Source: Microbacteriaceae bacterium (GTDB lineage Bacteria; Actinomycetota; Actinomycetes; Actinomycetales; Microbacteriaceae). Taken from it: DNA of 64,000 bases. The notes below the pieces were generated by a model. That model was not told the DNA's origin. It ran no database searches and saw nothing but the letters and a program-made list of their open reading frames with translations. This document shows, in pieces, positions 45,215 through 64,000 of this stretch; position 1 is the first letter of the stretch, and each line of letters opens with the position of its first letter. The translations under genes were made by a program, and so were the position numbers. Location: the NCBI GenBank assembly GCA_027487865.1, contig JAIYCT010000002.1, positions 91,038 to 155,037 of the forward strand, read 5' to 3'.

Positions 45215-45287
45215 AGGGCGGTAGTTCAATTGGTAGAGCAGCGGTCTCCAAAACCGCAAGTTGCAGGTTCAAATCCTGTCCGCCCTG
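45215..45287 (+). tRNA. tRNA-Trp (CCA)
   Basis: Hand-folded: acceptor AGGGCGG/CCGCCCT, anticodon loop CTCCAAA, T arm GCAGG-TTCAAAT-CCTGT. It is in the canonical position upstream of secE. Confidence 0.9.
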
Positions 45288-45309
45288 CGCTAACAAAGAA
45301 GGATGACAA

Positions 45310-49301: not shown

Positions 49302-49955
49302 ATGCCAAAGTCAGACCCTAAGGCCTACCGCCACGTTCTAGTGGTTGAAAACGAACCGCTAATGAGAGACCTCTTGGCTCGAGCTGTTGAATCAGCCGGT
49401 TTTGTCGTCACCACAGCTGCCAACGCGGCAGATGCCAAGCGCGCAATGAAGTCCATCGACCCTGATGCCATTGTGGTGGACATTGAACTGGGACCGGGTC
49501 CCAATGGATTTGAACTGGTTGATTCACTAAGCCCAGCCGCACACGCGGTTGGCATTGTTTACCTCACCAATCTGCCAGACCCACGCTTTGGCAAAAAAGA
49601 TGCTTCGATGGTGAAGTCCAACCAGGCTTACCTGCGCAAAGGTGCAATCCAGAATGGCCAAGAACTGGTCGATGCAATCGAGGCCGTGCTCAAAGATTCC
49701 ATAACCAAGGAATACCGTCACGATCTTGCAAGCAACCGCCCATTCTCGGCACTCTCTCGTCGTCAGGTGGAGACGCTGCAGCTGCTAAGCGAAGGTAAGA
49801 CCAACGCCCAGATCGCTGAACTTCGCGGCACCACCATCAGGGCCGTTGAGGGCATGCTCACTCGAATCTTTGAACTAATGGCCATCGATCCAAAAGACGG
49901 TAACCCCAGGGTTGAGGCAGCTAGCAAGTATCACCAGCTAAAAGAACAGGTCTAA
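49302..49955 (+). CDS. LuxR/NarL-family response regulator
   Basis: The ORF is trimmed to ATG 49302, preceded by GGGAG. It has a receiver domain (VLVVENEPLMRDLL...AIVVDIEL) and a C-terminal LuxR HTH (LSRRQVETLQLLSEGKTNAQIAELRGTTIRAVEGMLTRIF). Confidence 0.85.
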   Translation: MPKSDPKAYRHVLVVENEPLMRDLLARAVESAGFVVTTAANAADAKRAMKSIDPDAIVVDIELGPGPNGFELVDSLSPAAHAVGIVYLTNLPDPRFGKKDASMVKSNQAYLRKGAIQNGQELVDAIEAVLKDSITKEYRHDLASNRPFSALSRRQVETLQLLSEGKTNAQIAELRGTTIRAVEGMLTRIFELMAIDPKDGNPRVEAASKYHQLKEQV

Positions 49956-49958
49956 TAC

Positions 49959-51701
49959 TTGGCGCAACAAACCGTTTCTCCGTGGAGTGCTCTCGGGGGG
50001 AAGCATGCCCTGAATTGGAGATCTCACCTTTTCTTCGCGCTACCTGCTGTGATAACCGGGCTAATCAACGACTATGGTCGCCTAGGTGGCGATCCAATCA
50101 GCTGGTTCGTGGTGGTGGTGGCTGGTTTTGCAGCCACCGTTTTGTCCATCGAGCTTTTAGGTCAGGCCTACTCCAGAGTGTTTGGCAAGGCACAAGCGCC
50201 GGCCAACCTGGTCATTCTGCTGCTAGCCGGTGTAGTTCGTGGAGTAACTGTCTTCAACGTCGGAACCTTGTTGGGCGTGATGCCAGCAAGCGACATTTGG
50301 TTCCGCTTATTTGCAGCTCCGATTTATGTGGCTGCGGTCTACATGGTTTTCAATACCTTGGTTGCCTCATACCTTGCGCAGAAAGAGATAGACCAGGAGC
50401 TACGCCGTGAGCAGTACTCCCTGACTCAATCCAGGCTCGAGTTTGCTCAGGAAATTGACCGGTTACGGCTAGCCCAAAGAGCAAGAATCAGAGAGATGAT
50501 CACCCCTTCGCTCTGGGAAATTTCCAAGCACCTAAGCGATGCCCGGCTCTCCAAAGACGCATCGGCCATCGTGAGGGCTTTGCGTGGACTCAACGAAGAT
50601 GTGGTGAGACCGCTGAGCCACGAACTGGCGATGCGTTTTGATCCACCAACGCTGACCGCAGCGGCACCGTTCTTTACCAAGCTAGGCCGCCTAACGCTTC
50701 CAAAGCGAACCACCCTGGGAAACACCTTGCCGGTTGGCTGGACCGCCCTCACCGCTTTTGTGTTGGGGTTCTCGATGCTCTCGGCCTCGAGCAATCCACT
50801 GCAGGGACTGATAACGGCCCTGGTGCTAACGAGCTGGTTTGGATTGATTACCTACGGAGTGAAAGCAATAACGGTGAACCTTGATCACCCAACCTGGTTT
50901 GGCTTTTTGGTATCTATCCCTGCCGGTGCGCTAATCGGTCTTACCGCCTGGCCATTTACCTTCTGGGACACGCTTTCCCTGCCGGCGGCTTTCTTGGTGC
51001 AGTCAACTGTTTTCTTCTCAATCGCATACCCCAGCATCTATTTGATGGCGGTGGCTCAGAATCAGTCCGACATCTCACAGGCTCAGCTAAGAGGCATAGT
51101 TGAGGAGCTCAGGCTTCTAAACTCACAGCTTCGTCAACAGGTATGGCTTGATCAGAAGATGTTGGCAACCGAGCTGCACGGAAGCGTGCAGGCCACCCTG
51201 CATGCCACTGCCCTGCAGCTATCCAAGATTGACCAACCATCCATCTCAGATCTAGAAAAAGTAAAGGATGCGGTCGATAAGGCAATCTCACGACTTGGCC
51301 AGACTGAATACCTTGAGGGCGAGAGTTTTAGCCAAATCATCGAGGACATTGCCGAGGTTTGGGAAGACACCTGCGAGATTGAGTACCTAATCCAACCGGA
51401 TGCCCACGCCGTGTTGGATCAACAGCAAAGCTTGGCTAGAAGCACCGTCGAGGTATTGCGCGAGGCAATTACAAATGCCATAAAGCACGGCAAAGCCAAG
51501 TACATAAAGGTGAGCATTACCAAAAACGGCCAGCTGGTTGATCTAATCGTTGATAACGATAGCTCTGAGATCGTTACTGGCCAGCAGGGGCTTGGATCCA
51601 GCGTTATGGCCGAACTTACCCACAGCCACAAGCTCTACAAAACCAGAGGCGGCGTGAGGTTCACCGCTTCTATCGCGCTTGGGCTGCAACTCGAGCAGTA
51701 G
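49959..51701 (+). CDS. polytopic sensor histidine kinase (HisKA_3/NarX-DesK type)
   Basis: 580 aa with two blocks of TM helices separated by a coiled segment, an H-box-like ATELHGSVQATLHA, an N-box (EAITNAIKHGKA) and a G-box (GQQGLGSSV). Confidence 0.8.
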   Translation: MAQQTVSPWSALGGKHALNWRSHLFFALPAVITGLINDYGRLGGDPISWFVVVVAGFAATVLSIELLGQAYSRVFGKAQAPANLVILLLAGVVRGVTVFNVGTLLGVMPASDIWFRLFAAPIYVAAVYMVFNTLVASYLAQKEIDQELRREQYSLTQSRLEFAQEIDRLRLAQRARIREMITPSLWEISKHLSDARLSKDASAIVRALRGLNEDVVRPLSHELAMRFDPPTLTAAAPFFTKLGRLTLPKRTTLGNTLPVGWTALTAFVLGFSMLSASSNPLQGLITALVLTSWFGLITYGVKAITVNLDHPTWFGFLVSIPAGALIGLTAWPFTFWDTLSLPAAFLVQSTVFFSIAYPSIYLMAVAQNQSDISQAQLRGIVEELRLLNSQLRQQVWLDQKMLATELHGSVQATLHATALQLSKIDQPSISDLEKVKDAVDKAISRLGQTEYLEGESFSQIIEDIAEVWEDTCEIEYLIQPDAHAVLDQQQSLARSTVEVLREAITNAIKHGKAKYIKVSITKNGQLVDLIVDNDSSEIVTGQQGLGSSVMAELTHSHKLYKTRGGVRFTASIALGLQLEQ

Positions 51702-52647
51702 TCTCCGCAAGGGTCGGTGGCTCACAGCCCTTTCGCTCACAAACAATTCCAGCTGCAACAGCGGCAACCTCAGCCGCAGTTTGCAATTGAGTCGAATCTA
51801 GTTTTGCAAGCCTAGAAATCGGTTCATTACCTAGGGCGCCCACTAGATCAAGCTCAGCCAAAAGGTTCGCCATAAAGGTGTCACCAGCGCCAACTGTGTC
51901 AACCAGATTGATCTTTGGAGCTTTGGCGTGAAGCTTGTTGCCGTTCAAGAAAAGTGTTGCGCCATCACCACCGCGGGTAACAACAACCAACTTGCCACCC
52001 TGGCTCCACAAAAGTGCAATCTCATCGATGTTCGCTCCCACCGGAAGGTCATACAACCATTCGATATCGGCATCCGATGCCTTGATGATGTGGCTGTGGG
52101 CATTAATTCTTTGCACGCGAGCAAGTTCGCTCTGACGCTCAAAACCGAGGGCAGAGCGAATGTTGAGATCGTGACTCAAAGTCATCTGGCCTGTTGCGTA
52201 AAGCTCTTTTAGCCATTTCTCCAACACCAAGCCACCCGGGGCAATAGCCATCGCCAAACAGCCAAACTGCACTGCTTTGGTATCAAGGGACGCAAGCTCG
52301 ACGGCATTTGGAAGCTCAGCGTCGGTCCAGCCCCAGTCCGCGGTGCCATCAACGTAGAAGCTGTAGCTGGCTGATCCGCCGTCGCCAATGGTTGCTACCG
52401 CAAGCGTTGTCTGCTCTTTTGCATTGATGCTGTAATCGAGGTTTACACCGTTAGAACTCAAGCGCTCGCGAATCTGCTGGCCAAAGCCGTCGGATGAGAT
52501 TCGACCCATAAACCTTTGCTCAACCCCGCGCCGAGCCAGGGCCAAAGCGACGTTGGCGTTTGCTCCACCAACCACCGCTTGGTACTGACCAGAGCCATCG
52601 GCTGCGCCAATAAGGTCAATCAGCGCCTCACCAATCACCAGAATCAT
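51670..52647 (-). CDS. PfkB-family carbohydrate kinase (fructokinase-like)
   Basis: 325 aa with GEALIDL, GGANANVA and DTVGAGDTF motifs. It overlaps the kinase gene 3' end by 32 nt. Confidence 0.85.
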   Translation of the reverse strand: MILVIGEALIDLIGAADGSGQYQAVVGGANANVALALARRGVEQRFMGRISSDGFGQQIRERLSSNGVNLDYSINAKEQTTLAVATIGDGGSASYSFYVDGTADWGWTDAELPNAVELASLDTKAVQFGCLAMAIAPGGLVLEKWLKELYATGQMTLSHDLNIRSALGFERQSELARVQRINAHSHIIKASDADIEWLYDLPVGANIDEIALLWSQGGKLVVVTRGGDGATLFLNGNKLHAKAPKINLVDTVGAGDTFMANLLAELDLVGALGNEPISRLAKLDSTQLQTAAEVAAVAAGIVCERKGCEPPTLAETTARVAAQAR

Positions 52648-52669
52648 TCGGTAAGTCTAGGCTGTAGCT

Positions 52670-53692
52670 ATGAGTGAATCTAGAACCGCAAGACGGGCAA
52701 TAAAGCTTCCACTAATCGGAGTAGCTTTCCTGTGGGCCATGATGATGCTGGCCCAATACGTAGACCTCCAACGCGCGTACCCAACCTATGACAAAGACGG
52801 AGTTCAACTTCCCTACGAAATCACCCTGCAGTGGAGCGTCTATCTGCTTCTTTTGGGTATCGCCGGAGTCGCAATTGCATCGCTGCTCGGTCAGCGCATC
52901 GCGCTTGCACTAAGGGTGGAAAACGATTCTCCGCTAGCGCTTAGCGCTCACCGCTTCAACAACCTGTTTGTGATCCTGTCGCTGGTGGCAGGAGCGATAT
53001 TTGCAATCGGAAACTTCCTAGGTGCATTCAATAACTACGATTCCAGAGACACCCCACCTTGGGTGCGCATCTTTGGTGTCTATGTGCCAATCATCCTGGC
53101 TACCGCACTTGTAGTGGTCCTTATCCTGTTCGCATTTGTATTCCGCAAGGATGCTCCGGACATCTCGCCTGAGGAGCGCGATGAGGAGCGAGCAAGATTG
53201 CAGCGAGCAGTTGGACTGGCGTATGCCTCACCAATCATTGGTACCGCCATCGCAATCATCTTTGGCCTGGTGGTTTATGACACCACCCGCACCACACTGG
53301 ATGTTTGGATCTGGGTGATAATTCAGGCAATCATCGCGACCTCAATCATTATCGGAACCCGCTTTGCCGCTGAGGCAAGGTCATCCAAGCCGCTTGAGCC
53401 AAAGCCGAGAAGAACCGGAACCGCGGCAGTGAACCTAAACCTCGTGCTCTCGATTATCTTCGGAGCAGTGGTGACCATCATGGCTTTCGCCTTTGGATTT
53501 GCGGCAATTGAGGCGCTACGCGAGTGGCCACAGTGGGTCGAGGGAGACCCTAATTCGCAACAGCCGTTTGTAAATCCAATCTCGCTGACCTGGGCGTTGG
53601 AGAAACTGCTCCCAGCTCTTGTCCTGTTGTTCCTCGCAACCTTCGGTGTCTACCGGACCATGATCTCGCGAAACCGAGAAGTCAGTGCGTAG
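52670..53692 (+). CDS. polytopic membrane protein, unknown function
   Basis: 340 aa with about 8 hydrophobic helices and no recognisable motif. Confidence 0.5.
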   Translation: MSESRTARRAIKLPLIGVAFLWAMMMLAQYVDLQRAYPTYDKDGVQLPYEITLQWSVYLLLLGIAGVAIASLLGQRIALALRVENDSPLALSAHRFNNLFVILSLVAGAIFAIGNFLGAFNNYDSRDTPPWVRIFGVYVPIILATALVVVLILFAFVFRKDAPDISPEERDEERARLQRAVGLAYASPIIGTAIAIIFGLVVYDTTRTTLDVWIWVIIQAIIATSIIIGTRFAAEARSSKPLEPKPRRTGTAAVNLNLVLSIIFGAVVTIMAFAFGFAAIEALREWPQWVEGDPNSQQPFVNPISLTWALEKLLPALVLLFLATFGVYRTMISRNREVSA

Positions 53693-54326
53693 TTATTACA
53701 AGGGACTGCTATTTGACAACGATGGCGTCCTAGTTGACTCCATGCCGGGTGCAATCAGCGCCTGGCGGCAGTGGGGTGAGAAGTATCACCCAGGATTTGA
53801 ACTCACCTCAGAGCACCACGGTCGGCGTGCTCAGGATTTGGTTTTACAGATGGTGGGGGAGCAGCTTTTCAAAGAGGCCGATGACTACATCAATAAGCTC
53901 GAGCAGGACCTTGCCCACCTAACTGTTCCACTAGAAGGCTCGGTTGAATTTCTAACCTCCCTAAAACAAGGCGTTTGGACAGTGGTTACCAGTGCCAATC
54001 CAAACCTTGCAAAGGCCAGACTTAGCGCAGCCGGCATCCCAATCCCTAGCGAGCTAGTTACCGCATGGGATGTTGAAAACGGCAAACCACACCCGGAGCC
54101 ATATCTCAAAGGTGCTGCCAATCTAGGTTTCGATATTTCCGACTGCGTGGTGTTTGAAGATGCCGCTTCCGGAATACTCGCAGGACTAGAAGCAGGCGCA
54201 GGACTGCTAGTGGGTGTCACCGAGCATGCCCTTGACACTCAGGCAGACATAGTGGTTCGTTCTCTCAAGGGAATTACCTTTGTGGATGGCGAGTTAGTAA
54301 TTCCAGATTCGATTAGGTTGAGGTAA
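53685..54326 (+). CDS. HAD-IA family hydrolase (beta-phosphoglucomutase/phosphatase-like)
   Basis: 213 aa with motif I (LLFDNDGVLVDS), VVTSA and FEDAASGILAG. Confidence 0.8.
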   Translation: MRSYYKGLLFDNDGVLVDSMPGAISAWRQWGEKYHPGFELTSEHHGRRAQDLVLQMVGEQLFKEADDYINKLEQDLAHLTVPLEGSVEFLTSLKQGVWTVVTSANPNLAKARLSAAGIPIPSELVTAWDVENGKPHPEPYLKGAANLGFDISDCVVFEDAASGILAGLEAGAGLLVGVTEHALDTQADIVVRSLKGITFVDGELVIPDSIRLR

Positions 54327-54330
54327 AAAA

Positions 54331-54582
54331 ATGGCAGAAATTGAGTTCTACGGAGCAGACTGGTGCAGCGATTGCAGAAGGTCTAAGTCACTTCTAAACA
54401 CCCTTGGTGTGGAGTACGAGATGCACGACGTTGCGGAAGATGCAGCAGCTGCGGATCGCTCGAAGGAGATCTCAGGTCGCACCAATATTCCGGTGATTCG
54501 CTTCGCTGACGGCACCCACTTGGTCGAGCCAAGCGATGCCATTTTGCACGCTGAGCTAAAGCTCCGCGGCCTCGTTAGCTAA
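54331..54582 (+). CDS. glutaredoxin-like protein (mycoredoxin-like)
   Basis: 83 aa with a CSDC redox motif in FYGADWCSDCRRSK and IPVIRFADG. Confidence 0.75.
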   Translation: MAEIEFYGADWCSDCRRSKSLLNTLGVEYEMHDVAEDAAAADRSKEISGRTNIPVIRFADGTHLVEPSDAILHAELKLRGLVS

Positions 54583-54677
54583 TTTGGTTCTATCTTTTTT
54601 GACGCTTAGCGCCTAGGCTTGGAATTCGTAGTGCTAGAGGAAACCGTCCTTGGGCACGTCCCTAAGGAATCCTCAAA

Positions 54678-56471
54678 ATGCCAAAAGATTTTTCGTCGCC
54701 TTCGCGCGCGCCCAGGCCAGCTGCCGCTGGTAAAAAAAGAGCAGTAGCCCCTAAGTGGGATTCTGCACGCAGTGAGTCCCCAGCTAAGCGTGATGGCCGT
54801 AAGGGCTATGCGTCTAACAAGGGTGACTACGTTCCAAAGTCAGAGCGAATTGTTGAGGTAGATCGCAAGCCTCGCACCGCTCGTCCAGACTACGAAGCGG
54901 ACCGCAAGCCTCGCACCGCTCGCCCGGACTACGACGCTGACCGCAAGCCTCGTGCTGCCCGTGACTTTGATGGTGACCGCAAGTCTCGCACCGGTGGTCG
55001 TGACTTTGACCCAGCCCGTAAGACTTTCTCAGAGCGTCCAGATCGCGTGGCTCGCGACAACGACCGCAACCGCAGCTTCGATGGCGCTCGTGCCAAGAGC
55101 TCAACCGGCAAGACCTTCTCACAGGACGTCAAGCTAGAGCGTCTTGAGAGCGCAACCGATGCAGCTACTTTCGCAACCTTCCAGGAGATGGATCTTCCAG
55201 AGCGTCTGACCCAGGAACTTGCCAAGATGGGTGCAGCGACTCCTTTCCCAATTCAGGCGGCAACCATCCCGGTTGCAATGGCTGGACAGGATGTTCTAGG
55301 TCGCGGTAAGACCGGTAGCGGTAAGACCATCGCATTCGGTGTTCCACTGGTAGCAATGCTGGCAGCAGCCGGTAACCAGCCTCGCGAAGCTCGTAAGCCT
55401 CGTGCGCTAGTGCTAGCTCCTACTCGTGAGCTTGCAGAGCAGATCGACCGCACCCTGTCACAGCTTGCAAAGAGCGTTGGCTTTTTCACCACCACCATTT
55501 ACGGAGGTGTTCCTCAGTACCGTCAGGAGCAGGCCCTAAAGCGCGGTGTTGACATTGCAATTGCAACCCCGGGCCGCCTAGAGGACCTAATGGCTCAGGG
55601 CCTAGTTGATCTATCCGGTGTCGAGCGCATTGTTATCGATGAGGCTGACCACATGTGTGAGCTTGGCTTTGTTGAGCCGGTAACTCGCATCCTGGAGGCA
55701 ACTGGAGATTCTCAGAAGCTACTGTTCTCGGCAACCCTGGACAAGCAGGTTGCAAACCTGGTCAAGCGCTTTATGCCAAACCCATACGTCTATGAGGTAC
55801 CGGGTGAGGTAAACGAGTCTTCGGACATCGACCACATCGTGTTGACCATGGAGCCAAGAGACCGCTCACAGATCTTCCACCGCCTAGTTCAGGGCGAGGG
55901 CAAGTCAATCGTGTTCGTTCGCACCAAGGCAACCGCTGAGGCACTATCTCAGTCGCTAAACGATGCCGGTGTTTCCACCGCTCGTCTACACGGTGACCTA
56001 AACCAAGCGCAGCGCACCAAGAACCTAGAGCGCTTCACTCACGGAGCAGCTCGCGTGATGATTGCAACCGACGTTGCAGCTCGCGGTATTCACGTTGACG
56101 ATGTGAAGTTGGTTATCCAGCTTGACCTCCCAGAGGAATACAAGACTTACCTACACCGTGCAGGCCGAACCGGCCGTGCCGGTCGCTCCGGAACCGTGGT
56201 TTCGCTTGTTCCACTGGGCAGAACCCGCAAGGTTGAGGGACTTCTAGAGCGCGCTGACCGTCAGGCCAAGTACGTTCACGTAACCCCGGGCGACAAGGTG
56301 ATCACGGATCTTGCAGGACCGATTGCCCCACCACCGATTGTTGATTCCTTGGACTTTGGTGACTCTCGTTTCGAGACCACCAACAAGTCAGCGGTAAAAA
56401 AGAACTTGCGCGAGCGCAGCTCGGGAAATAAGCTATACGCAGCCAAAGACCGCCGGTTTCGTCAAAGGTAA
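54678..56471 (+). CDS. DEAD-box ATP-dependent RNA helicase with a repetitive basic N-terminal extension
   Basis: 597 aa with a Q-motif region (FPIQAA), GRGKTGSGKT, DEAD-type IDEADHM, SAT, HGDLNQAQR and HRAGRTGRAG. Confidence 0.9.
   Translation: MPKDFSSPSRAPRPAAAGKKRAVAPKWDSARSESPAKRDGRKGYASNKGDYVPKSERIVEVDRKPRTARPDYEADRKPRTARPDYDADRKPRAARDFDGDRKSRTGGRDFDPARKTFSERPDRVARDNDRNRSFDGARAKSSTGKTFSQDVKLERLESATDAATFATFQEMDLPERLTQELAKMGAATPFPIQAATIPVAMAGQDVLGRGKTGSGKTIAFGVPLVAMLAAAGNQPREARKPRALVLAPTRELAEQIDRTLSQLAKSVGFFTTTIYGGVPQYRQEQALKRGVDIAIATPGRLEDLMAQGLVDLSGVERIVIDEADHMCELGFVEPVTRILEATGDSQKLLFSATLDKQVANLVKRFMPNPYVYEVPGEVNESSDIDHIVLTMEPRDRSQIFHRLVQGEGKSIVFVRTKATAEALSQSLNDAGVSTARLHGDLNQAQRTKNLERFTHGAARVMIATDVAARGIHVDDVKLVIQLDLPEEYKTYLHRAGRTGRAGRSGTVVSLVPLGRTRKVEGLLERADRQAKYVHVTPGDKVITDLAGPIAPPPIVDSLDFGDSRFETTNKSAVKKNLRERSSGNKLYAAKDRRFRQR
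54861..55010 (+). repeat. in-frame tandem repeats (39, 39, 36 and 36 nt) encoding DRKPRTARPDY(E/D)A-type units
   Basis: Units at 54861-54899, 54900-54938, 54939-54974 and 54975-55010. The first two are nearly identical at the DNA level. Confidence 0.85.
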
Positions 56472-56493
56472 TCAAAGAAATTAGTTTCTAGAT

Positions 56494-56635
56494 TCACCTG
56501 CGTTGATTAAGGTTCACGAAAGTGAAGGCCAGCGCAGGTGAATGTAAGAAGCTTTTGAAGCTCTGAACGTTTACTCTGCGTTCGGAGCTTTTTTCTTTTA
56601 AGAACTGACCGGCACCAACACAAACAAGGAGTGCC
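56494..56635 (+). promoter_or_regulatory. rplJ (L10) leader with structured 5' domain and attenuator
   Basis: Long-range helix TCACCTGCG (56494-56502) / CGCAGGTGA (56533-56541) encloses TTCAC-GAAA-GTGAA. A terminator-like hairpin and the Shine-Dalgarno sequence AAGGAG follow. Confidence 0.6.
56560..56598 (+). terminator. attenuator/terminator hairpin inside the L10 leader
   Basis: GCTCTGAACG (56560-56569) pairs with CGTTCGGAGC (56579-56588), with one G-U pair, followed by TTTTTTCTTTT. Confidence 0.55.
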
Positions 56636-57148
56636 ATGGCAGACAAGAAGGCTACGGTCGCCGAGCTAAAGGACAAGTTCTCTAGCTCGAGTGCAGTAAT
56701 CCTTACTGAATACCGCGGACTCACAGTGACTCAGCTCAAGGAGCTGCGTCGCACATTGGCTAATGACGCAACCTACGTAGTTGCTAAGAACACCCTTCTA
56801 ACAATCGCAGCAAAGGAAGCAGGAGTATCTGCTTTCGACGGTCAGCTATTTGGACCATCTGCATTGGCATTTGTTCACGGAGACGCAGTTTCCGTAGCAA
56901 AGGCACTGAAGGACTTCGCAAAGGCAAACCCACTGCTAGTGGTAAAGACCGGTGTCATGGATGGCACTGCTCTTACCGAGGCAGAGGTTAAGAAGCTTGC
57001 GGACCTCGAGACTCGCGAAGTACTACTGGCCAAGGCCGCTGGTGCTCTAAAGGCCACGTTGTTCAAGGCTGCCTACACCTTCAACGCGCTTCCTTCGGGA
57101 ACCGTTCGCGTTGTCGACGCGTTGCGTCAAAAGCAAGAGTCCAAATAA
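56636..57148 (+). CDS. rplJ: 50S ribosomal protein L10
   Basis: 170 aa with a typical L10 N-terminus (KKATVAELKDKFSSSSAVILTEYRGLTV). Confidence 0.97.
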   Translation: MADKKATVAELKDKFSSSSAVILTEYRGLTVTQLKELRRTLANDATYVVAKNTLLTIAAKEAGVSAFDGQLFGPSALAFVHGDAVSVAKALKDFAKANPLLVVKTGVMDGTALTEAEVKKLADLETREVLLAKAAGALKATLFKAAYTFNALPSGTVRVVDALRQKQESK

Positions 57149-57178
57149 CAATCGTTCACAACCCATTAGGAGACACAA

Positions 57179-57559
57179 ATGGCAAAGCTATCTGCCGACC
57201 AGCTCATTGAGGCTTTCAAGGAGCTAACCCTTATCGAGCTTTCTGACTTCGTTAAGAAGTTCGAAGAGGTATTCGAAGTTTCTGCTGCTGCACCTGTTGC
57301 TGTTGCTGCTGCTGGCGCAGCTGCACCTGCTGAGGCTGCAGAAGAGAAGACCGAGTTCGACGTTGTACTAGAGGCCGCTGGTGACCAGAAGATTCAGGTC
57401 ATCAAGGAGGTTCGTGCAATCACCAACCTAGGTCTAGGTGAGGCAAAGGCTCTAGTTGATGGTGCACCTGCAACCATCCTCGAGGGTGCAAAGAAGGAAG
57501 TTGCTGAGGACGCTAAGGCAAAGCTAGAAGCTGCCGGCGGCAAGGTTACCCTAAAGTAA
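57179..57559 (+). CDS. rplL: 50S ribosomal protein L7/L12
   Basis: 126 aa with an Ala-rich hinge and the C-terminal domain [23 protein letters not shown]. Confidence 0.97.
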
Positions 57560-57579
57560 TCACCCCAAAGCAAAGATTG

Positions 57580-57611
57580 ATCCCCCAGGTTCACCTGGGG
57601 GATTTTCTTTT
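57580..57611 (+). terminator. rho-independent terminator after rplL
   Basis: Stem TCCCCCAGG (57581-57589) / CCTGGGGGA (57594-57602), loop TTCA, then TTTTCTTTT. Confidence 0.8.
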
Positions 57612-57662
57612 CCCTGTGGTTCCAAAAGCTATAAAGACACTCGCTTTATAGGCTGAACCCAA

Positions 57663-58241
57663 ATGGGACTCAAGAAGGCAATTACCGCTATCGCAGCCAT
57701 GCTGCTCGTGAGTCTTGCCCTGCCAGCTCAAGGGCTAAACCTTCCCCAAGCCCCAAGAGCGACGCCAGCGATCGAAGGTTCCCAGGCCAAGGCAGATAGC
57801 GTTATTAGAGTCGCCGGTTGGGACTTCAAAAAGGTCGAGCAAGTCCTCATTGATGACCTGCCAACCACCTTCCAGGCCTCCTCAAATACCTTGATCGCTA
57901 TCCGCATCCCACTTGGTACCAACCCAGGTGATGTCACAATCACCCTGGTCTCAAATAGCGGCAACACTAAATCTTCCTTCCAGATCGAAATCGTGTCGCT
58001 TGAGACCGAAAAAGATACCAAGGTTACCATCGGTTCGTTTTTGGGATACGTCGCCGTGTACACCAAAAATCTCTCCGGAGAAAAGCTCTCGATTCAGGTG
58101 GGTAATAAGTTCCGTGAGGTATCGGTTTTGGACAACAACTTCACTGCGAACCTCACCAAAGTGGGCGGCAATCGCCTGGTCGAAGTGAAGGTTTTTGTCG
58201 CAGGTCAACTGGTCGAATCGGCCATGGTTTTGGTTCGCTAA
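57663..58241 (+). CDS. secreted protein with an IPT/TIG-like Ig-fold segment, unknown function
   Basis: 192 aa with signal peptide MGLKKAITAIAAMLLVSLALPAQG. The IRVAGWDF...TLIAIRIPLGTNPGDVTITLVSNSG pattern resembles IPT/TIG. I saw no terminator before the giant ORF downstream. Confidence 0.55.
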   Translation: MGLKKAITAIAAMLLVSLALPAQGLNLPQAPRATPAIEGSQAKADSVIRVAGWDFKKVEQVLIDDLPTTFQASSNTLIAIRIPLGTNPGDVTITLVSNSGNTKSSFQIEIVSLETEKDTKVTIGSFLGYVAVYTKNLSGEKLSIQVGNKFREVSVLDNNFTANLTKVGGNRLVEVKVFVAGQLVESAMVLVR

Positions 58242-58382
58242 AAAACTCCCCAAAACCCCCCTTTCCAACGTGTCAAAACAGCTTCGGATACCCGTATCTA
58301 CGCGGAAGTGTGACCATGCCCCCTGCCTAAACTTGAAGGGCCTAAAGGGTGCGCTTTGCCGTGCCTGAAAACGAGAGAGATT

Positions 58383-61300
58383 ATGACCGAGCTGCAGTTA
58401 ACCAGAGGGGCAACCAAGTGGTTGCGATCCCTCGGCCTAGCTGCAATTGCGTTGCTCGTTGCAGCAGCAGTCTCCGTTACCAGCTTCTTGAGTGCCCAAT
58501 CTTCGGCTGACGGTTCTGCATCTGAAATCGACTATGCCTTACAGGTAAACCAAACGAACTACGCGAGCGGTGCTAACTCCATTGCCCTAGGCTCACAGGT
58601 TGCGTGGGAAGCCTGGATCAACCCGACCAGCTATGACAGCAGTTTCGGCACCTTCTTAGTGAAGGAAGCGAGTTTCATTTTCGCCATCAGAGGGGGGACC
58701 CTTTGGTGGCACGCGGCCAATGGAAGCGCTTGGGTCGGCACGTGGATGGACAGTGGAATTCCAATCGCAATGAATCGATGGACCCACTTCGGTGCGTCAA
58801 TGAATGGCAGCAGCCTCACCTTCTTCATCGACGGACAGGAGAGAGGGACTTTCTCAACCTCATTCAGCACAATCGCAACTAACGCCTCTTGGCCAATTAC
58901 GGTTGGGTCACGCGGCGGCGAGCACATGGTTGGCCAAATCGACGAGGTGAAGATTTGGACTACCACCAGAACCGCTGCCCAAATGGCCCAGAGCATGCAC
59001 AGCAAGGTCTCCGGATCCTCCACCGGACTTGCCGCCTACTGGGATTTCAATGAACCTTCGGGAGCTACGGTCTTCAACCGAACCGGTTCCAACAACCTTA
59101 GCTTTGTCGGCACACCGACAAGGGTTGACGTTAAGCGAATAACCGGGCTCGACACTGGTGAGACCGTCATCACTTTCCCAAGAACCTACCTTCCAGGCAA
59201 TGGAACTTGGAAACCGCCAGCAGCAGCCAAGAACATGAGTGCCCTCGTGGTTGCCGGTGGCGGTGGTGGCGGTGGCCAGCTAGACGCCGGTGGCGGTGGC
59301 GGTGGCGGTGTCATTTCATTCGCAAGCATTTCGATCACCTCATCAACTCCAATCGTTGTTGGTCAAGGTGGCCCTGGTGGCTGGAATGAGGCATCTGTAA
59401 GAAACCACGGCTTGAATGGTCAAGACACACTACTCGGAACCATTAGAGCACTGGGTGGCGGTGGCGGTGGTGGTTATGGCTGGCCAATTAACCTCGACCG
59501 TGCTCTTGGATATTCAGGTGGATCTAGCGGTGGTCACGCCGAACAGAACGCGATTCGGTCGGGCGTTGCGGGGCTACAGACAACAGACGCTGCGACATAT
59601 GCAGGTGGTGTCGAATACGGAAATGCTTCTGGAGCAACAATTGCAGATGCTCTGGCAGGTTCTGGTGGTGGTGGTGCAGCTGGTGCTGGTGGCGCTGTAA
59701 CCGTAAAGAACAACGGTGGTGCCGGAGGTGCCGGTGTTCTGAATACAATTCGCGGCTTTTCCAACTACTACGGTGCTGGTGGTGGTGGTGCCGATCGATC
59801 TGGATTCGGCGAAGTTGGCGGCTCTGGCGTTGGTGGCAATGGTGGCGGGCCTTCTGGGGCTCGCACGGCGGGAGCAACTAACACAGGTTCAGGTGGTGGT
59901 GGTGCTTACGAATCTTTTGGTGGCGACGGTGGCTCCGGTGTAGTCATCATTCGATACACGCCAACTGAAGACCGCGCATGGTTCCAGCAAGCAGATCCAT
60001 CCAAGCACCTCAGCTACGACGGCTACGTGATACCGAACACCGATAACAGCAGCTTTATGGTTGCGATGTGGATTAAGCCTGACCTATCGAATACAGACCT
60101 CTATCAAGGGCTTTGGTCGCAAAGTACTTACAACGATGGCAACACCCGTTACGCGTTTTATCGAATGTCCAACGGAAACTACTTGCTCGACATGGGAGGT
60201 GCAGATACAACTTTCACACCGAACATACCGGTGAGTGGCGAATGGACACATGTCGCCATTGAGGTTGTGCACCCTTCGGTTTACCTCTACATAAATGGTG
60301 AGCTAGCTGCCCAGGTCAATAACTACGGAACCAGGAGCCGACCCGGTGGAAAATTCACAGTAGGTGCCGTACTGGCTGATGGTGGAAATCGTTTTACCGG
60401 CTGGATTGATGAAGTAAAGGTCATGACTGGAGGTACCCCTGGTCAAACCAACATCCGTAACATGATGCACACCTATGGCTATGTGGGTGGCTTGCAGGCC
60501 TATTACGACTTCAATGAATTCCACGAGAACACGGTTGTAGATCGCAACGGTAGTGCACGCAATTTGATTCCTACGGCAACTGGCATTTGGACTTCCGAAA
60601 CCGTCACTTCATCACAAATCGTTGAATATGGCAGTGCATACGGCACACAGACGACTGCCAAGTTCATGCGTAGCTACCTAACCGGTGCCGGGGGTTGGAC
60701 GACTCCAAGTGGCGTATCCGCCATGAAGGCACTTGTCGTGGCTGGCGGCGGTGGTGGTGGTGGTGGGCCGAGCGGTAATCACTCAAACGGTGGTGGTGGA
60801 GGTGCTGGAGGTTTTAGGGTCACCGAATCAATCTCAGTTGCACCGTCCACGCAGGTTTCAGTAATTGTTGGCCATGGAGGCACTGGGGCTCGCCTCAACA
60901 ATCTCGATAACGCCTACTCTCGGGAACCAAGCAATGGTGGCAACTCCCAATTCGGAAGCATGACCTCAGCTGGCGGCGGTGCTGGCGGTCACATGACGAC
61001 AATCGGCACCATGATCGCCGCAACTTCAGGAGGCTCTGGTGGTGGTGGTGGTGCTCAGGCCAACGTCATCTACCCAATTTCTGGTGCCGCTGGAACGACT
61101 GGTCAAGGTAATGCCGGTGGAAATGGTTTCAACTGGGACAATGCCTTCCAGTCCTCAGGTGGAGGTGGTGGCGCAGGTTCGGTCGGTGAGGCTGCTAACA
61201 AGGCTGCTAACCGCTCTGGTAATGGTGGATCTGGCCTGTCCTCGAGCATTACTGGCACGAGCGTTCCTTACGCTGGCGGCGGCGGCGGCGGTTCCCGATC

Positions 61301-64000
61301 CTCGTCCAATGCCGGAACCGGCGGAGCAGGAGGCGGCGGCAACGGAGCCAAGATGGGTGACGGATCTCCCGCAACTGCAGGACGTGGTGGCGGTGGAGGT
61401 GGCGGAAGCCTAAATGGTGGAAGCGGCGGCTCTGGAGTTGTTGTCTTGTCATGGGGAGGAACCCTTGATGTCGCGCAGACTCCCACTGCAGTTCGACCGG
61501 GACAAGCTTTTGCAAGGGCACTCCAAATACAACTAACTGATGCTTCCGGTAATCGGACTACATCCAATGGCAATGTAACGCTTACTGCGTCTGCTGGAGT
61601 GCTGCAGATCAACGGCTCAACTCTTACTCAATCTCTGACCGTGGCTGCTGTCAACGGCGTTGCTACGTTCAACAATGTGGGCTATACGAGCACAGTTACA
61701 AGTCCTCAGACCTTAACTTTCACCGCCGATGGATTTGTGGGCACCTCTACAACTATTGCAATCACTTACATGCCGGGCAACGTGAATATCGCGAACGGAG
61801 TGACCACCCAGGGAACGTTTGTTGATGGCCTGTTCTACGCATCTACAACATCAGGAACAACGAACATTTTGGCTTCTGATCTGGTTCGCCACATGGCGAG
61901 TTTCTCAACAGTTATCTCAGCCTCGGGAAACATCAGCGTCTCTGCAGATGTGACAACCTCTGCAACAGCCAGCTTGACCCTTCGAGCAGCTGGAAGCATC
62001 TCACTCTCGCCGAATGTCGATATGGTGCTCAATGGCGGCAACCTAATCCTTTGGTCTGACTCAGATAACAATGGAGCTGGCTACTTCAGAGCCGAACAGG
62101 GCGTCGTTCTGAATACCGTCGGTGGCAGCACGACAGCTTTGACTGGTGGTGGACACATATACATAGCTGGTGGTTTGGATACCAACAGTGATGGCCTGCC
62201 TGACGGTTCTGCTCGAAGTGTGGCAAGCACCAACAAGGGAGACGCTGTATGGATCGGTGCGGACAGCACAGCCAACGCCTTCTCCGCATACTCCGGCGGC
62301 GGTGACATCGTCGTCAGGGGTGACGCCTCTAGGCATATCGGTGTCAACATCAACGGCCAGATCACGATGAAGGCTGGCAATGGCCGACTCATCATTGCCG
62401 CCACCACAAGTTCTACTACCAGTGCCGAAGGTAACAACACCCACGCTCTCGAGGTACTTGCCTACTCTGGTTACCCGAGTTTGTATGAAAGCTATAGCTC
62501 TCACAGCCAAGCAATTTCTATCACCGGAACTTCAACTGCCAATAACACCGATACCTTCGGCGTCTCGTTCCTGTTTGGGTCGAACTCGAGTAACACGGTT
62601 ATTTCGAGTAAGGGCACCGGTGGTGTCTACATTTCTGGTTCGAGCTCCGCAACCGACATACAGCCCGTGAGATTAGACAAAGTCACTATTCACGCTGTGA
62701 CCTCATCGATTGTTATTGAGGCCCGCGGCTCAGGATCTGCCAACGACAAGTCTGTTTTGCATTTCGTGGATGCCAACAGCAACATCGGCGCTTCGGGAGC
62801 CCTTACCTCTTCGGCGAACATCATTCTCCGGGCCGATGAATTTATGGGCTGGGCGGGAACCCTTGCCCTTAGCACTTCAGGAAAGGTAACCGTTGAGCCT
62901 TTCAACGATTCCTTCTCCGGCTGGTTTAACTTCCTGTCATTCTTCGACCCATCAAGCGCAGTCACTGAGCTGACCATCGGTAAGCCCGGAAGAGTTTCTG
63001 GTAGTGCCGTAGTTTCTCAGAGTGCTCACGCAATTTCTATCAGCCGAGCAGTAAGCATCAATGGGCCAATTGGTGTTTACGGCTCAGTGGTTTCGATAAA
63101 CGAGAACATAACCACAACGGCTGTTGGTGCCGCCATAACATTGCGAGCCAGTTCTTACATTCACGTAACAAGCTCTAAGCAGGTTCGAACAGCTGGTGGA
63201 AACATCGTGCTTTGGGCGGATAGCGACAACAACTCAGCCGGCTTCGTGCGATTGCTAGGTGGAGCAACGCTCTGCTCCACCGCTGGAACTTGCGGCACTG
63301 CGACCACTGGCGGTGGAGACATTGTTATCGGTGGAGGCTCGGCGAGCACAACCAGTCCAACCCAGCCTGGCGGAGCTGCGGCTGGCAGTGGTTCGACATA
63401 CAACACCACTGGAGGGGCTGACACCACTGGTGTCCAGCTTGGCACCATGGGCGTTGGGGGAAGTGGAGCAAAGCTTTACTCCGCCGGCGGAAACATTCGA
63501 GTTTACGGCCGCATGCACTCCAGCCCCGGTGCCGCATGGGCCGCAGGTATTGCCGTAGTAGGTGGAACTGAGATTCTCTCAGGCACGGGCAAGATCAACC
63601 TGATTGGTGAGACAACATCCGCTGGTGGCACAGGTCCAGATGGCACTATGGAAATCAACGCTTGGAGCGGAACTGTCAATCTGACTTCGCTTTCCACCGC
63701 CTCTGATGCGATTTTGATCGAGGGTCGACAGGTTGGTTCCGGTGCAGCCGATTACGGCATTTGGGGAGGTAACGATGGAACCTCATTCACCGCACCCGGT
63801 GGAGTGGTTATTCGTGCAGATCACATAAGCCATGGCCTAGAGGCAACAATCAGCACCAGCGGTCAAATTGTGCTTGAGCCTCAGGGCACTGCGTTTAGAA
63901 CTTCGGCTGCCTCAACTAACTTCGTACCAAAATTCGGTGCTGATGACGATCTGAAATTCACAGGCAATCCGACGGGCTTGCGTGTGGGTTCGGCATCGAA
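58383..64000 (+). CDS. giant secreted surface-type protein, 3'-truncated by the window end (at least 1872 codons): signal peptide, 2 x [LamG lectin-like + glycine-rich domain], Ig-like domain, beta-helix-type repeats
   Basis: Translated by hand codon by codon. The frame is open from the last in-frame stop (TGA 58311-58313) to nt 64000. ATG 58383 is preceded by GAGAGAGA; TTG 58356 is an alternative start. It is absent from the ORF track because no stop lies in the window. Protein content is coherent throughout. Confidence 0.9.
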   Translation, partial: MTELQLTRGATKWLRSLGLAAIALLVAAAVSVTSFLSAQSSADGSASEIDYALQVNQTNYASGANSIALGSQVAWEAWINPTSYDSSFGTFLVKEASFIFAIRGGTLWWHAANGSAWVGTWMDSGIPIAMNRWTHFGASMNGSSLTFFIDGQERGTFSTSFSTIATNASWPITVGSRGGEHMVGQIDEVKIWTTTRTAAQMAQSMHSKVSGSSTGLAAYWDFNEPSGATVFNRTGSNNLSFVGTPTRVDVKRITGLDTGETVITFPRTYLPGNGTWKPPAAAKNMSALVVAGGGGGGGQLDAGGGGGGGVISFASISITSSTPIVVGQGGPGGWNEASVRNHGLNGQDTLLGTIRALGGGGGGGYGWPINLDRALGYSGGSSGGHAEQNAIRSGVAGLQTTDAATYAGGVEYGNASGATIADALAGSGGGGAAGAGGAVTVKNNGGAGGAGVLNTIRGFSNYYGAGGGGADRSGFGEVGGSGVGGNGGGPSGARTAGATNTGSGGGGAYESFGGDGGSGVVIIRYTPTEDRAWFQQADPSKHLSYDGYVIPNTDNSSFMVAMWIKPDLSNTDLYQGLWSQSTYNDGNTRYAFYRMSNGNYLLDMGGADTTFTPNIPVSGEWTHVAIEVVHPSVYLYINGELAAQVNNYGTRSRPGGKFTVGAVLADGGNRFTGWIDEVKVMTGGTPGQTNIRNMMHTYGYVGGLQAYYDFNEFHENTVVDRNGSARNLIPTATGIWTSETVTSSQIVEYGSAYGTQTTAKFMRSYLTGAGGWTTPSGVSAMKALVVAGGGGGGGGPSGNHSNGGGGGAGGFRVTESISVAPSTQVSVIVGHGGTGARLNNLDNAYSREPSNGGNSQFGSMTSAGGGAGGHMTTIGTMIAATSGGSGGGGGAQANVIYPISGAAGTTGQGNAGGNGFNWDNAFQSSGGGGGAGSVGEAANKAANRSGNGGSGLSSSITGTSVPYAGGGGGGSRSSSNAGTGGAGGGGNGAKMGDGSPATAGRGGGGGGGSLNGGSGGSGVVVLSWGGTLDVAQTPTAVRPGQAFARALQIQLTDASGNRTTSNGNVTLTASAGVLQINGSTLTQSLTVAAVNGVATFNNVGYTSTVTSPQTLTFTADGFVGTSTTIAITYMPGNVNIANGVTTQGTFVDGLFYASTTSGTTNILASDLVRHMASFSTVISASGNISVSADVTTSATASLTLRAAGSISLSPNVDMVLNGGNLILWSDSDNNGAGYFRAEQGVVLNTVGGSTTALTGGGHIYIAGGLDTNSDGLPDGSARSVASTNKGDAVWIGADSTANAFSAYSGGGDIVVRGDASRHIGVNINGQITMKAGNGRLIIAATTSSTTSAEGNNTHALEVLAYSGYPSLYESYSSHSQAISITGTSTANNTDTFGVSFLFGSNSSNTVISSKGTGGVYISGSSSATDIQPVRLDKVTIHAVTSSIVIEARGSGSANDKSVLHFVDANSNIGASGALTSSANIILRADEFMGWAGTLALSTSGKVTVEPFNDSFSGWFNFLSFFDPSSAVTELTIGKPGRVSGSAVVSQSAHAISISRAVSINGPIGVYGSVVSINENITTTAVGAAITLRASSYIHVTSSKQVRTAGGNIVLWADSDNNSAGFVRLLGGATLCSTAGTCGTATTGGGDIVIGGGSASTTSPTQPGGAAAGSGSTYNTTGGADTTGVQLGTMGVGGSGAKLYSAGGNIRVYGRMHSSPGAAWAAGIAVVGGTEILSGTGKINLIGETTSAGGTGPDGTMEINAWSGTVNLTSLSTASDAILIEGRQVGSGAADYGIWGGNDGTSFTAPGGVVIRADHISHGLEATISTSGQIVLEPQGTAFRTSAASTNFVPKFGADDDLKFTGNPTGLRVGSAS
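58524..59061 (+). other. LamG/concanavalin-like domain 1 of the giant ORF
   Basis: VAWEAWINPTSY...FIFAIRGGTLWWHAANGSAWVG...NRWTHFGASMNGSSLTFFIDGQE...GQIDEVKIWTTTRTAAQM...YWDFNE follows the typical Laminin_G_3-type pattern. Confidence 0.7.
59139..59963 (+). other. glycine-rich domain 1 of the giant ORF
   Basis: It opens ITFPRTYLPGNGTWKPPAAAKNMSALVVAGGGGGGG and closes GGDGGSGVVIIRYTP, with many GGxGG runs between short beta-strand-like segments. Confidence 0.65.
59256..59309 (+). repeat. two heptaglycine codon tracts (GGT/GGC)7 separated by 12 nt
   Basis: 59256-59276 and 59289-59309. This simple-sequence triplet repeat generates proline/tryptophan/arginine-rich artefact ORFs in other frames. 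Confidence 0.9.
60003..60518 (+). other. LamG/concanavalin-like domain 2 of the giant ORF
   Basis: FMVAMWIKPD...YAFYRMSNGNYLLDMGG...GEWTHVAIEVVHPSVYLYINGEL...GWIDEVKVMTGG...YYDFNE is paralogous to domain 1. Confidence 0.7.
60663..61460 (+). other. glycine-rich domain 2 of the giant ORF
   Basis: It opens FMRSYLTGAGGWTTPSGVSAMKALVVAGGGGGGGG and closes GGSGGSGVVVLSWGG. Gly tracts lie at 60744-60767, 61275-61292 and 61386-61406. Confidence 0.65.
61461..61769 (+). other. Ig-like (bacterial Big-type) domain of the giant ORF
   Basis: TLDVAQTPTAVRPGQAFARALQIQLTDASGNRTTSNGNVTLTASAG...VAAVNGVATFNNVGY...LTFTADGF...IAITY follows a beta-sandwich pattern. Confidence 0.55.
61770..64000 (+). repeat. beta-helix-type region built from divergent repeat units of about 387 aa
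   Basis: The landmark motif (L/I)TLRA...GGN(L/I)(I/V)LW(S/A)DSDNN(G/S)AG(Y/F)(F/V)R occurs at 62031-62090 and 63192-63251, 1161 nt apart. Each is followed by a TGGG(H/D)I(Y/V)I(A/G)GG segment. The composition is Gly/Ser/Thr/Asn-rich and strand-like. Confidence 0.6.

Follow-up and report, generated by a model that had tools for sequence, protein, structure and literature searches.

The stretch of DNA under consideration, referred to here as the window, comprises 64,000 nucleotides (nt) of a freshwater (pond) Microbacteriaceae bacterium (assembly GCA_027487865.1, contig JAIYCT010000002.1, positions 91,038 to 155,037 of the forward strand). At its downstream end it holds a third or less of a gene for a giant secreted surface protein, namely the 5' part of that gene, most of which falls in a segment that is hypervariable with respect to a related genome. 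That genome is represented by L004, a 629-kb contig of a Microbacteriaceae metagenome-assembled genome from a pond, in which the upstream gene order is as in the window. The features of the gene are listed below, with E denoting expectation values and domain positions given in amino acids (aa) counted from M1 of the giant protein.

58373 to 58379, forward strand: purine run GAGAGAG, resembling a ribosome-binding site, 3 nt 5' of ATG 58383; read directly from the sequence
58383 to 64000, forward strand: giant gene, 5' part, 1,872 codons, leaving the window; open frame, start call on an identical contig, 858 homologues and L004 orthologue
58383 to 58511, forward strand: N-terminal export signal or possible membrane anchor, residues 1-43; from the translation
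58532 to 63172, forward strand: hypervariable segment, spanning the two heads, the Ig-like domain and repeat A and reaching into repeat B; from blastn against L004
58572 to 58982, forward strand: Laminin_G_3 domain 1 (ConA-like lectin fold), aa 64-200; PF13385, 67.3 bits, E 2.1e-18
59196 to 59957, forward strand: Gly_rich_2 domain 1, aa 272-525, 33% Gly; PF21722, 75.1 bits, E 1.1e-20
60036 to 60425, forward strand: Laminin_G_3 domain 2, aa 552-681; PF13385, 57.0 bits, E 3.2e-15
60687 to 61454, forward strand: Gly_rich_2 domain 2, aa 769-1024, 34% Gly; PF21722, 65.6 bits, E 8.8e-18
61455 to 61772, forward strand: Ig-like beta-sandwich, Thr-rich, about 100 aa, aa 1025-1130; residues 1-105 of an AlphaFold2 model, Foldseek
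61773 to 62882, forward strand: all-beta stalk repeat A, putative beta-solenoid, aa 1131-1500; self-similarity, jackhmmer, AlphaFold2
62946 to 63992, forward strand: all-beta stalk repeat B, aa 1522-1870; matched by the repeat A profile in jackhmmer (E 3e-79)

Translation of nt 58311 to 64000 reveals a single stop codon, TGA at 58311-58313, after which the frame is free of stops from 58314 to 64000 and runs through 1,895 sense codons to the window end, 1,872 of them counted from ATG 58383. The first-pass annotation of this DNA had proposed precisely this frame and start, and re-reading the frame uncovers no stop that would interrupt it. The gene call on the public contig L001, which is 100% identical to the window, begins at the same ATG (L001 4631 corresponds to window 58383), and the GAGAGAG run would be a suitable ribosome-binding site for it. 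The chance of such a long open run is about 1e-29 at the stop-trinucleotide frequency of the window (0.035) and about 1e-22 at that of the region (0.027). As had also been noted at the outset, the open reading frame (ORF) track lists exactly 22 short ORFs (at least 60 aa) across 58383-64000 and, for want of a stop within the window, leaves out the long frame. Codon-position GC is atypical in the giant frame, with a value of 0.58 at the second position (GC2), since the encoded protein consists of 18% glycine together with much serine, alanine and threonine. With GC2 skewed by composition in this way, coding is supported by overwhelming homology rather than by codon bias. The gene is real and very large.

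A homologue search with the giant protein returns 858 database proteins; the protein belongs to a large, uncharacterised family and is not a one-off. Its L004 orthologue is colinear with it at 56.5% aa identity and, over the 21 kb compared, is still open after 5,266 codons. This orthologue is made up of the signal, two copies of the LamG plus glycine-rich module, an Ig-like domain, seven beta repeats and then at least 11 more Ig-like domains. Judged from this relative, the gene in the window probably exceeds 5,000 codons. Other relatives are of similar or larger size: on L009, the contig of homologue P0002, a protein with 41% aa identity is encoded in frames of 2,501, 1,356, 1,049 and further aa, amounting to at least 4,900 aa up to the contig end, and a distant relative on the 406-kb contig L010 spans frames of 5,425, 741 and 2,842 aa, about 9,000 aa in total. 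In each of L009 (3444-18282), L010 (1-20690) and L012, the giant gene is called as three to four successive, overlapping genes in different frames, which are either assembly or sequencing frameshifts or else real programmed or decayed frames. The contigs of P0002, P0127 and P0129 are cut or frameshifted. A search of metagenome contigs for an exact 50-nt match to the window end found none, and the full-length protein was not among the homologues recovered with the L004 tail as query.

Among the best 120 of the 858 homologues, the C-termini that can be seen comprise an OmpA domain, an LPTTG motif, a single transmembrane (TM) helix with a basic tail, and TIG-type ends. The OmpA end is that of the Rhodoluna lacicola protein P0015 (E 1.7e-10). 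The L010 protein closes with three fn3 domains, an Ala/Gly/Ser linker and a polytopic membrane domain of around 330 aa; this last domain (L010 19191-20690) has no Pfam match and is an unusual anchor for a giant surface protein. The visible cellular C-termini of the relatives are all surface-retention devices. A tail on contig L011 that was considered as OmpA-like was rejected, as Pfam gives two fn3 domains and a weak TIG there and leaves the remainder unassigned. Past the stop of the giant gene of this relative, L011 9800-12076 shows short ORFs on both strands with Val/Glu and Pro runs; such runs are typical of a glycine-rich gene read out of frame, so a second glycine-rich gene may follow.

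P0015, annotated as an 'InlB B-repeat-containing protein' of 2,571 aa, is laid out alike at the N-terminus, with a signal peptide and two LamG plus Gly_rich_2 modules. Its stalk, however, consists of Listeria-Bacteroides (Flg_new) repeats ahead of the OmpA end, whereas the giant protein has an Ig-like domain and beta repeats of about 375 aa, such that only the head is common to the two. Within the same best 120, there is also a separate set of homologues of 1,100-1,500 aa that are signal-less and carry the glycine-rich domain at the end. They fall within P0031-P0116, have no N-terminal hydrophobic segment, terminate exactly in the glycine-rich domain (...GGSGIVIIRYYGG) and are more likely to be phage fiber-like proteins than cellular giants.

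The first 43 residues of the giant protein harbor a basic n-region, a hydrophobic core of around 22 residues (LGLAAIALLVAAAVSVTSFL) and an SAQS motif, and look like a Sec signal. The N-terminus is almost identical in the L004 orthologue, falling within the flank that is 93% identical in nt sequence. The signal peptide first proposed for this protein is thus in keeping with both the translation and its conservation.

The head of the protein is formed by two Laminin_G_3 and two Gly_rich_2 domains, as expected from the initial description of two tandem LamG plus glycine-rich modules. All four score two- to three-fold over the Pfam gathering scores (27.6 bits for Laminin_G_3, PF13385, and 24.3 bits for Gly_rich_2, PF21722), and both Gly_rich_2 matches span profile positions 4 or 5 to 225 of 226. 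The two modules are internal duplicates of one another, related by a shift of 489-496 aa at 32-40% identity. The same Pfam pairing recurs in most of the best 120 of the 858 homologues and is also present in the phage protein family phrog_2295. The suggestion that the tandem pairing represents an undescribed architecture was overstated, given that there are more than 850 homologues, that both domains are in Pfam and that the fold is solved; the architecture is neither rare nor structurally mysterious. It had also been stated that the role of the glycine-rich domain is not established. This holds for its role in cells but not more widely, as the domain has a Pfam name, its fold has been solved and its role in viruses is known. 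A literature search for PF21722 or Gly_rich_2 retrieved no paper, and we found neither a characterised cellular member of the LamG plus Gly_rich_2 giants nor a paper describing these giants or tying their heads to phage fibre tips. The Luna-1 paper (PMC12422013) makes no mention of giant genes or adhesins.

The structure of the second glycine-rich domain (aa 748-1040) was modeled with AlphaFold2 from a 37-sequence alignment, A1, of the domain copies found in the homologues. The model reaches a predicted local distance difference test score (pLDDT) of 88.0 and a predicted template modeling score (pTM) of 0.87, with 201 of 293 residues at or above a pLDDT of 90. A pLDDT of 88 despite 34% glycine argues for a folded domain and not a linker. 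DSSP leaves most residues of the model without an assignment, and the predicted structure is a TNF-like sandwich plus an ordered lattice of extended glycine strands. When compared with the PDB by Foldseek, the best matches include the tail tip of mycobacteriophage Bxb1 (9d93, chains Qa/Qb, E 1.3e-7, 26% identity) and the fiber of cyanophage Pam3 (7ypx, E 3.2e-4; 7yfw, E 3.9e-3), and 19 of the 24 best matches are glycine-rich-domain chains from the receptor kinases ALK and LTK (E 0.02-0.3). The profile of the glycine-rich alignment likewise finds the Pam3 fiber among PDB sequences (E 7.4e-5), with the closing GGsGvViiry strand included in the match. Among the viral models of BFVD, 244 match at E of 1e-3 or better, with template modeling (TM) scores of 0.6-0.78 and 30-44% identity. 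They are named 'glycine-rich domain-containing proteins', some having a ConA-like lectin domain too, and they come from uncultured Caudovirales, Synechococcus phage Bellamy, S-TIM4, Pelagibacter phage HTVC025P, Halorubrum phage HF2 and prasinoviruses. In PHROGs, the domain matches phrog_2295 at E 2e-43 and, more weakly, tail-annotated families (tail fiber assembly, minor tail protein, tail fiber protein). A phmmer search with the whole fragment against PDB sequences gave no match, and neither did tblastn of module 2 against INPHARED phages, for which the low-complexity filter is the probable cause.

The fold in question, a TNF-like sandwich with a glycine lattice, has been solved in phage fiber tips and in ALK/LTK, where it binds a receptor or ligand. 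In Pam3 gp24, the glycine-rich domain forms the distal part of the fiber, with a conserved glycine stem and a variable tip, and is the proposed receptor binder; it resembles both gp38 of phage S16 and the ligand-binding domain of ALK (PMC9608196). The fold predicted for Gly_rich_2 is the same as that of these phage tips (Pam3 gp24 7ypx/7yfw, Bxb1 9d93, Salmonella phage S16 gp38 6F45), and the giant protein shares with them GGGGxGG-type motifs and a closing GGSG-V/I-V-I-x-R/S-Y/W strand. In contrast to the phage tips, the domain here is cellular, internal (aa 272-525 and 769-1024) and tandem, with a LamG domain before each copy. The giant protein also begins with an export signal and is without an N-terminal baseplate-docking helix, a phage context or an adjacent fiber chaperone. 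The resemblance to the TNF-like plus glycine-rich (TG/GRD) domain of ALK/LTK (7ls0, 7nx0, 7lir), which serves in ligand recognition, is weak but consistent. At 13-18% identity and TM scores of 0.19-0.26 it falls short of demonstrated homology. In addition, the giant protein matches PF21722, with no ALK-type glycine-rich family in the Pfam scan, and ALK/LTK is a eukaryotic receptor kinase, unlike this bacterial protein.

Behind the head, neither the Thr-rich segment nor the repeats of about 375 aa match any family in Pfam or NCBIfam, and NCBIfam gives no match for the whole fragment. The segment from aa 1025 to 1500 was modeled with AlphaFold2 from a 26-sequence alignment, giving a pLDDT of 89.0 and a pTM of 0.86, the repeat A part having a pLDDT of about 90. 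For the Thr-rich part, Foldseek returns the Ig-like domains of GH2 enzymes, complement MG domains and a CLIPPER domain from a fibrillar adhesin, in alignments of 103-119 columns at a probability of about 1.0 and E values from 2e-3 to 4e-2, which agrees with the Ig-like domain suggested in the first-pass annotation. Repeat A is modeled as an all-beta fold of about 30 short strands, plus a single helix. Long alignments in the PDB are confined to right-handed beta-helices, namely the GH28 exopolygalacturonase 2uve and the RbmB polysaccharide lyase 9ozl, and these are weak (probability 0.12-0.28, TM score 0.13-0.24). Of the earlier description of at least two beta-helix repeats of about 387 aa, the two long all-beta repeats stand, with a length of about 375 aa that is close to the one given; the beta-helix fold itself is no more than plausible. 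Tandem copies of the repeat are 25-38% identical to each other, and none of 26 repeat sequences has a Pfam family. When aa 1031-1872 are searched exhaustively with HMMER, 268 representative proteins match at E of 1e-3 or better, 147 of them at 1e-10, and several are longer than 6,000 aa, whereas a word-indexed homologue search with the stalk region gives just five matches. The repeat is thus a recurrent, unnamed stalk unit.

A comparison of the window with L004 by blastn shows that the upstream genes and the first 50 or so codons of the giant gene, up to nt 58531, are 93.4-94.6% identical. There is then no nt match over 58532-63172, after which identity resumes at 88.9% over 63173-64000. At the protein level, identity in blocks of 100 aa is 28-69% over most of the unmatched segment and 93-96% from about aa 1601 to 1872, with the flanking proteins at 95% (rplJ) and about 90% (the 192-aa ORF that precedes the giant gene). 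Conserved flanks, the same locus and strongly divergent content are the marks of a replacement island, and all three are seen here in one genome pair. The alleles are also mosaic. Over aa 1201-1500, the metagenomic protein fragment P0121 is 96-99% identical to the giant protein, where L004 is 51-69% identical, and P0001 shows 34-52% identity in module 1, rising to 58-66% in module 2 and to 80-88% in repeat A; taken together, the metagenomic fragments P0001, P0121 and P0193 range from about 35 to 99% identity by block. Three public contigs that are 100% identical to the window, L001, L002 and L003 (window 53753-63110, 49756-58662 and 56623-58383, respectively), all break at or in the giant gene, at 63110, 58662 and 58383, the last exactly at the start codon. 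These ends suggest assembly breaks that result from population or strain heterogeneity.

No phage genes are found near the giant gene, which lies downstream of those for a DEAD-box helicase, rplJ and rplL and of one for a small secreted protein. Two features belong to this upstream region.

57579 to 57604, forward strand: strong terminator-like hairpin with an 11-bp stem and T run, from a pattern scan after rplL; consensus match only
57663 to 58241, forward strand: 192-aa secreted ORF with a signal peptide, a weak TIG match (E 1.5e-4) and a C-terminal module

The hairpin may set the ribosomal-protein operon apart from the two genes that follow, the 192-aa ORF and the giant gene. In most bacteria rpoB comes directly after rplL; here, it is the 192-aa ORF and the giant gene that come after rplJ-rplL (56636-58383). 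Over 168 aa, the 192-aa ORF shares 36% identity (E 2e-29) with the C-terminus of P0007, a LamG/Gly_rich_2 giant, and the same tail is found in P0009, P0011, P0017, P0019, P0021 and P0119. By this homology, which takes in about the last 170 aa of the giants, it is a stand-alone copy of a module that terminates other LamG/Gly_rich_2 giants. It is conserved beside the giant gene in L004 and is probably functionally linked to it; the small protein may act as a docking or anchoring partner of the giant protein. Further upstream, a tRNA-Trp gene is found at 45215-45288, and the convergent genes 49959-51701 (forward strand) and 51670-52647 (reverse strand) overlap by 32 nt, in agreement with an earlier remark on the tight packing of this genome. 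The 580-aa product of 49959-51701 has just a weak HATPase_c match (E 5e-4).

Considered as a whole, these observations are best accommodated by a surface protein that is fibrillar and adhesin-like and whose hypervariable head would bind a ligand, a reading to which we give a probability of about 0.6. We infer that the protein is exported via its N-terminal signal and held on the cell by a C-terminal end that lies beyond the window. The N-terminal far end would carry the two tandem recognition modules, each a LamG-type lectin fold with a compact glycine-rich domain. Behind this head would stand a long, rigid stalk composed of one Ig-like domain, the all-beta (probably solenoid) repeats and arrays of Ig-like domains, which would keep the two heads tens to more than 100 nm off the wall. 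There, the heads may engage a glycan or protein at the surface of particles or of other cells. Being exposed, the head would be replaced and reshuffled by recombination between strains, the behavior of a replacement flexible genomic island or giant gene region that is usually ascribed to phage or grazer pressure.

The tandem stalk domains that characterize fibrillar adhesins are present, as an Ig-like domain and two repeats in the window and as seven repeats and at least 12 Ig-like domains in L004. The fibrillar adhesins or 'periscope' proteins of Gram-positives share with the giant protein an export signal, a terminal recognition region, the anchors seen in its relatives and a tandem Ig-like/beta stalk with a copy number that differs between relatives (PMC9704523). 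The LamG plus Gly_rich_2 type of head, in contrast, did not turn up in the adhesin papers found. A second point of reference is provided by the planktonic giants, namely the giant gene region of Polynucleobacter, with a gene of up to 42 kb, and the giant protein clusters of Alteromonas macleodii (PMC5644125, PMC4033161). Such clusters and regions are replacement genomic islands of aquatic bacteria (PMC4033161, PMC5644125). The locus described here has in common with them a large surface-protein gene at a fixed locus, conserved flanks, divergent content and breaks in metagenome assemblies. It differs in belonging to the Actinomycetota (Microbacteriaceae) and in its domain make-up, and the likeness drawn here is one of pattern. 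The replaced segment also lies inside the gene, after the signal peptide, whereas in those regions the whole gene cluster is replaced. By this analogy, the giant gene would belong with the replacement islands of giant genes already known from planktonic bacteria.

Several points weigh against the fibrillar adhesin-like reading. The hydrophobic stretch at the N-terminus could stay uncleaved and serve as a membrane anchor, in which case the heads would lie beside the membrane and not distally. The C-terminus and its anchor are beyond nt 64000. Phage fiber tips form trimers at the C-terminus; the Gly_rich_2 copies of the giant protein, which exceeds 1,872 aa, are not at a C-terminal distal tip but are internal, tandem and paired with LamG, so their binding mode may be different. 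The hypervariability is seen in one genome pair together with metagenomic protein fragments, and a beta-helix fold for the repeats, although plausible from the model, is unproven. Finally, for none of the cellular family members did we come across a ligand, expression data or a phenotype.

The phage-like fold of the head prompts consideration of some other roles. The protein may be a passive shield, phage receptor or decoy for which useful binding is not the main role, that is, a long variable coat that phages must recognize or penetrate, or that soaks phages up, the phage-like heads then reflecting an arms race or an exchange of modules with phages. The fold of the head is indeed common to 244 viral proteins, including those of phages of aquatic bacteria, and to phage tail tips, the head is hypervariable between conserved flanks, and replacement islands for exposed structures have been tied to phage predation (PMC4033161). 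Against this, the best viral matches, at 30-44% identity, lie below many cellular homologues (39-66% within alignment A1), so there is no sign of recent exchange between host and phage, and a shield or decoy leaves two elaborate recognition modules at the tip unexplained. We regard it as rather unlikely. If the gene were instead a phage or prophage tail-fiber gene, or a non-functional ORF or pseudogene, its phage-like glycine-rich domain and PHROG matches would be as expected, as would the signal-less homologues of 1,100-1,500 aa of which some end like phage fibers. However, the locus is without phage genes from rplJ-rplL to the window end, a hydrophobic export signal is present, the gene is syntenic in a second bacterial genome, and its relatives of 5,000-9,000 aa have cellular anchors. 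A chance ORF or pseudogene has to contend with an open frame of 1,895 codons, the chance probability of which is at most 1e-22. On these grounds, both the prophage tail-fiber gene and the chance ORF were rejected, the former being essentially excluded.

Two further proposals concern the stalk and the part of the gene that lies past the window. In one, the protein is a surface-tethered polysaccharide-active enzyme or scavenger, with catalytic solenoid repeats of the pectate-lyase or glycosidase type and with the LamG domains as carbohydrate-binding modules. LamG and ConA-like folds are often carbohydrate binders, and the repeat finds its only long structural alignments in 2uve and 9ozl. These matches are nonetheless too weak, on the probabilities and TM scores given above, to carry the idea far. 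Neither a glycoside-hydrolase nor a lyase family of Pfam is found in the 26 repeat sequences, and seven copies in tandem, with 25-38% identity among them, suggest a structural and not a catalytic part; an enzyme is thus very unlikely. The other proposal is a filament for contact-dependent competition, a polymorphic toxin resembling the beta-helical giants CdiA and FhaB, with the head directed at neighboring cells and the toxin encoded past the window. Toxin-delivery systems are also giant, with beta-strand repeats and a variable recognition region. In those systems, though, the variable toxin is C-terminal and dedicated export partners are encoded, none of which is seen nearby, whereas the variable part of the giant protein is N-terminal. 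The ends visible in the relatives (OmpA, TM helix, LPTTG, TIG, polytopic membrane domain) are not toxins, and we consider this proposal highly improbable. None of these rivals is favored by the data.

With regard to its kind, the fibrillar adhesin-like filament is already known, as it falls among the giant variable surface proteins of planktonic bacteria and the fibrillar adhesins. It is possible to go further and view its head as a recognition cassette that is common to aquatic bacteria and viruses, a programmable, phage-like specificity module of cellular origin that is swapped by recombination. This is quite unlikely on present evidence. If true, a phage-type tip mounted on a filament of more than 100 nm would bind surface glycans of the same kind of cell or of partners, for kin recognition or attachment, or would intercept phages relying on those ligands, and the cassette would be swapped within a conserved frame of signal peptide and stalk.

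For annotation, the locus illustrates how a giant gene goes unlisted when an ORF track demands a stop codon. As the gene also breaks metagenome assemblies, it is systematically under-reported. In abundant planktonic bacteria, whose genomes are small, giant genes account for 1-2% of the sequence, and their function is a question of long standing. The locus described here gives a concrete, testable handle on what such genes do, since the variable, exposed end has, in two copies, a domain for which the relatives of solved structure, in phages and in ALK/LTK, are tips that bind a receptor or ligand. The head architecture is shared, in P0015, by Rhodoluna lacicola, a culturable and genetically tractable relative for which genome editing has been reported (PMC11577799).

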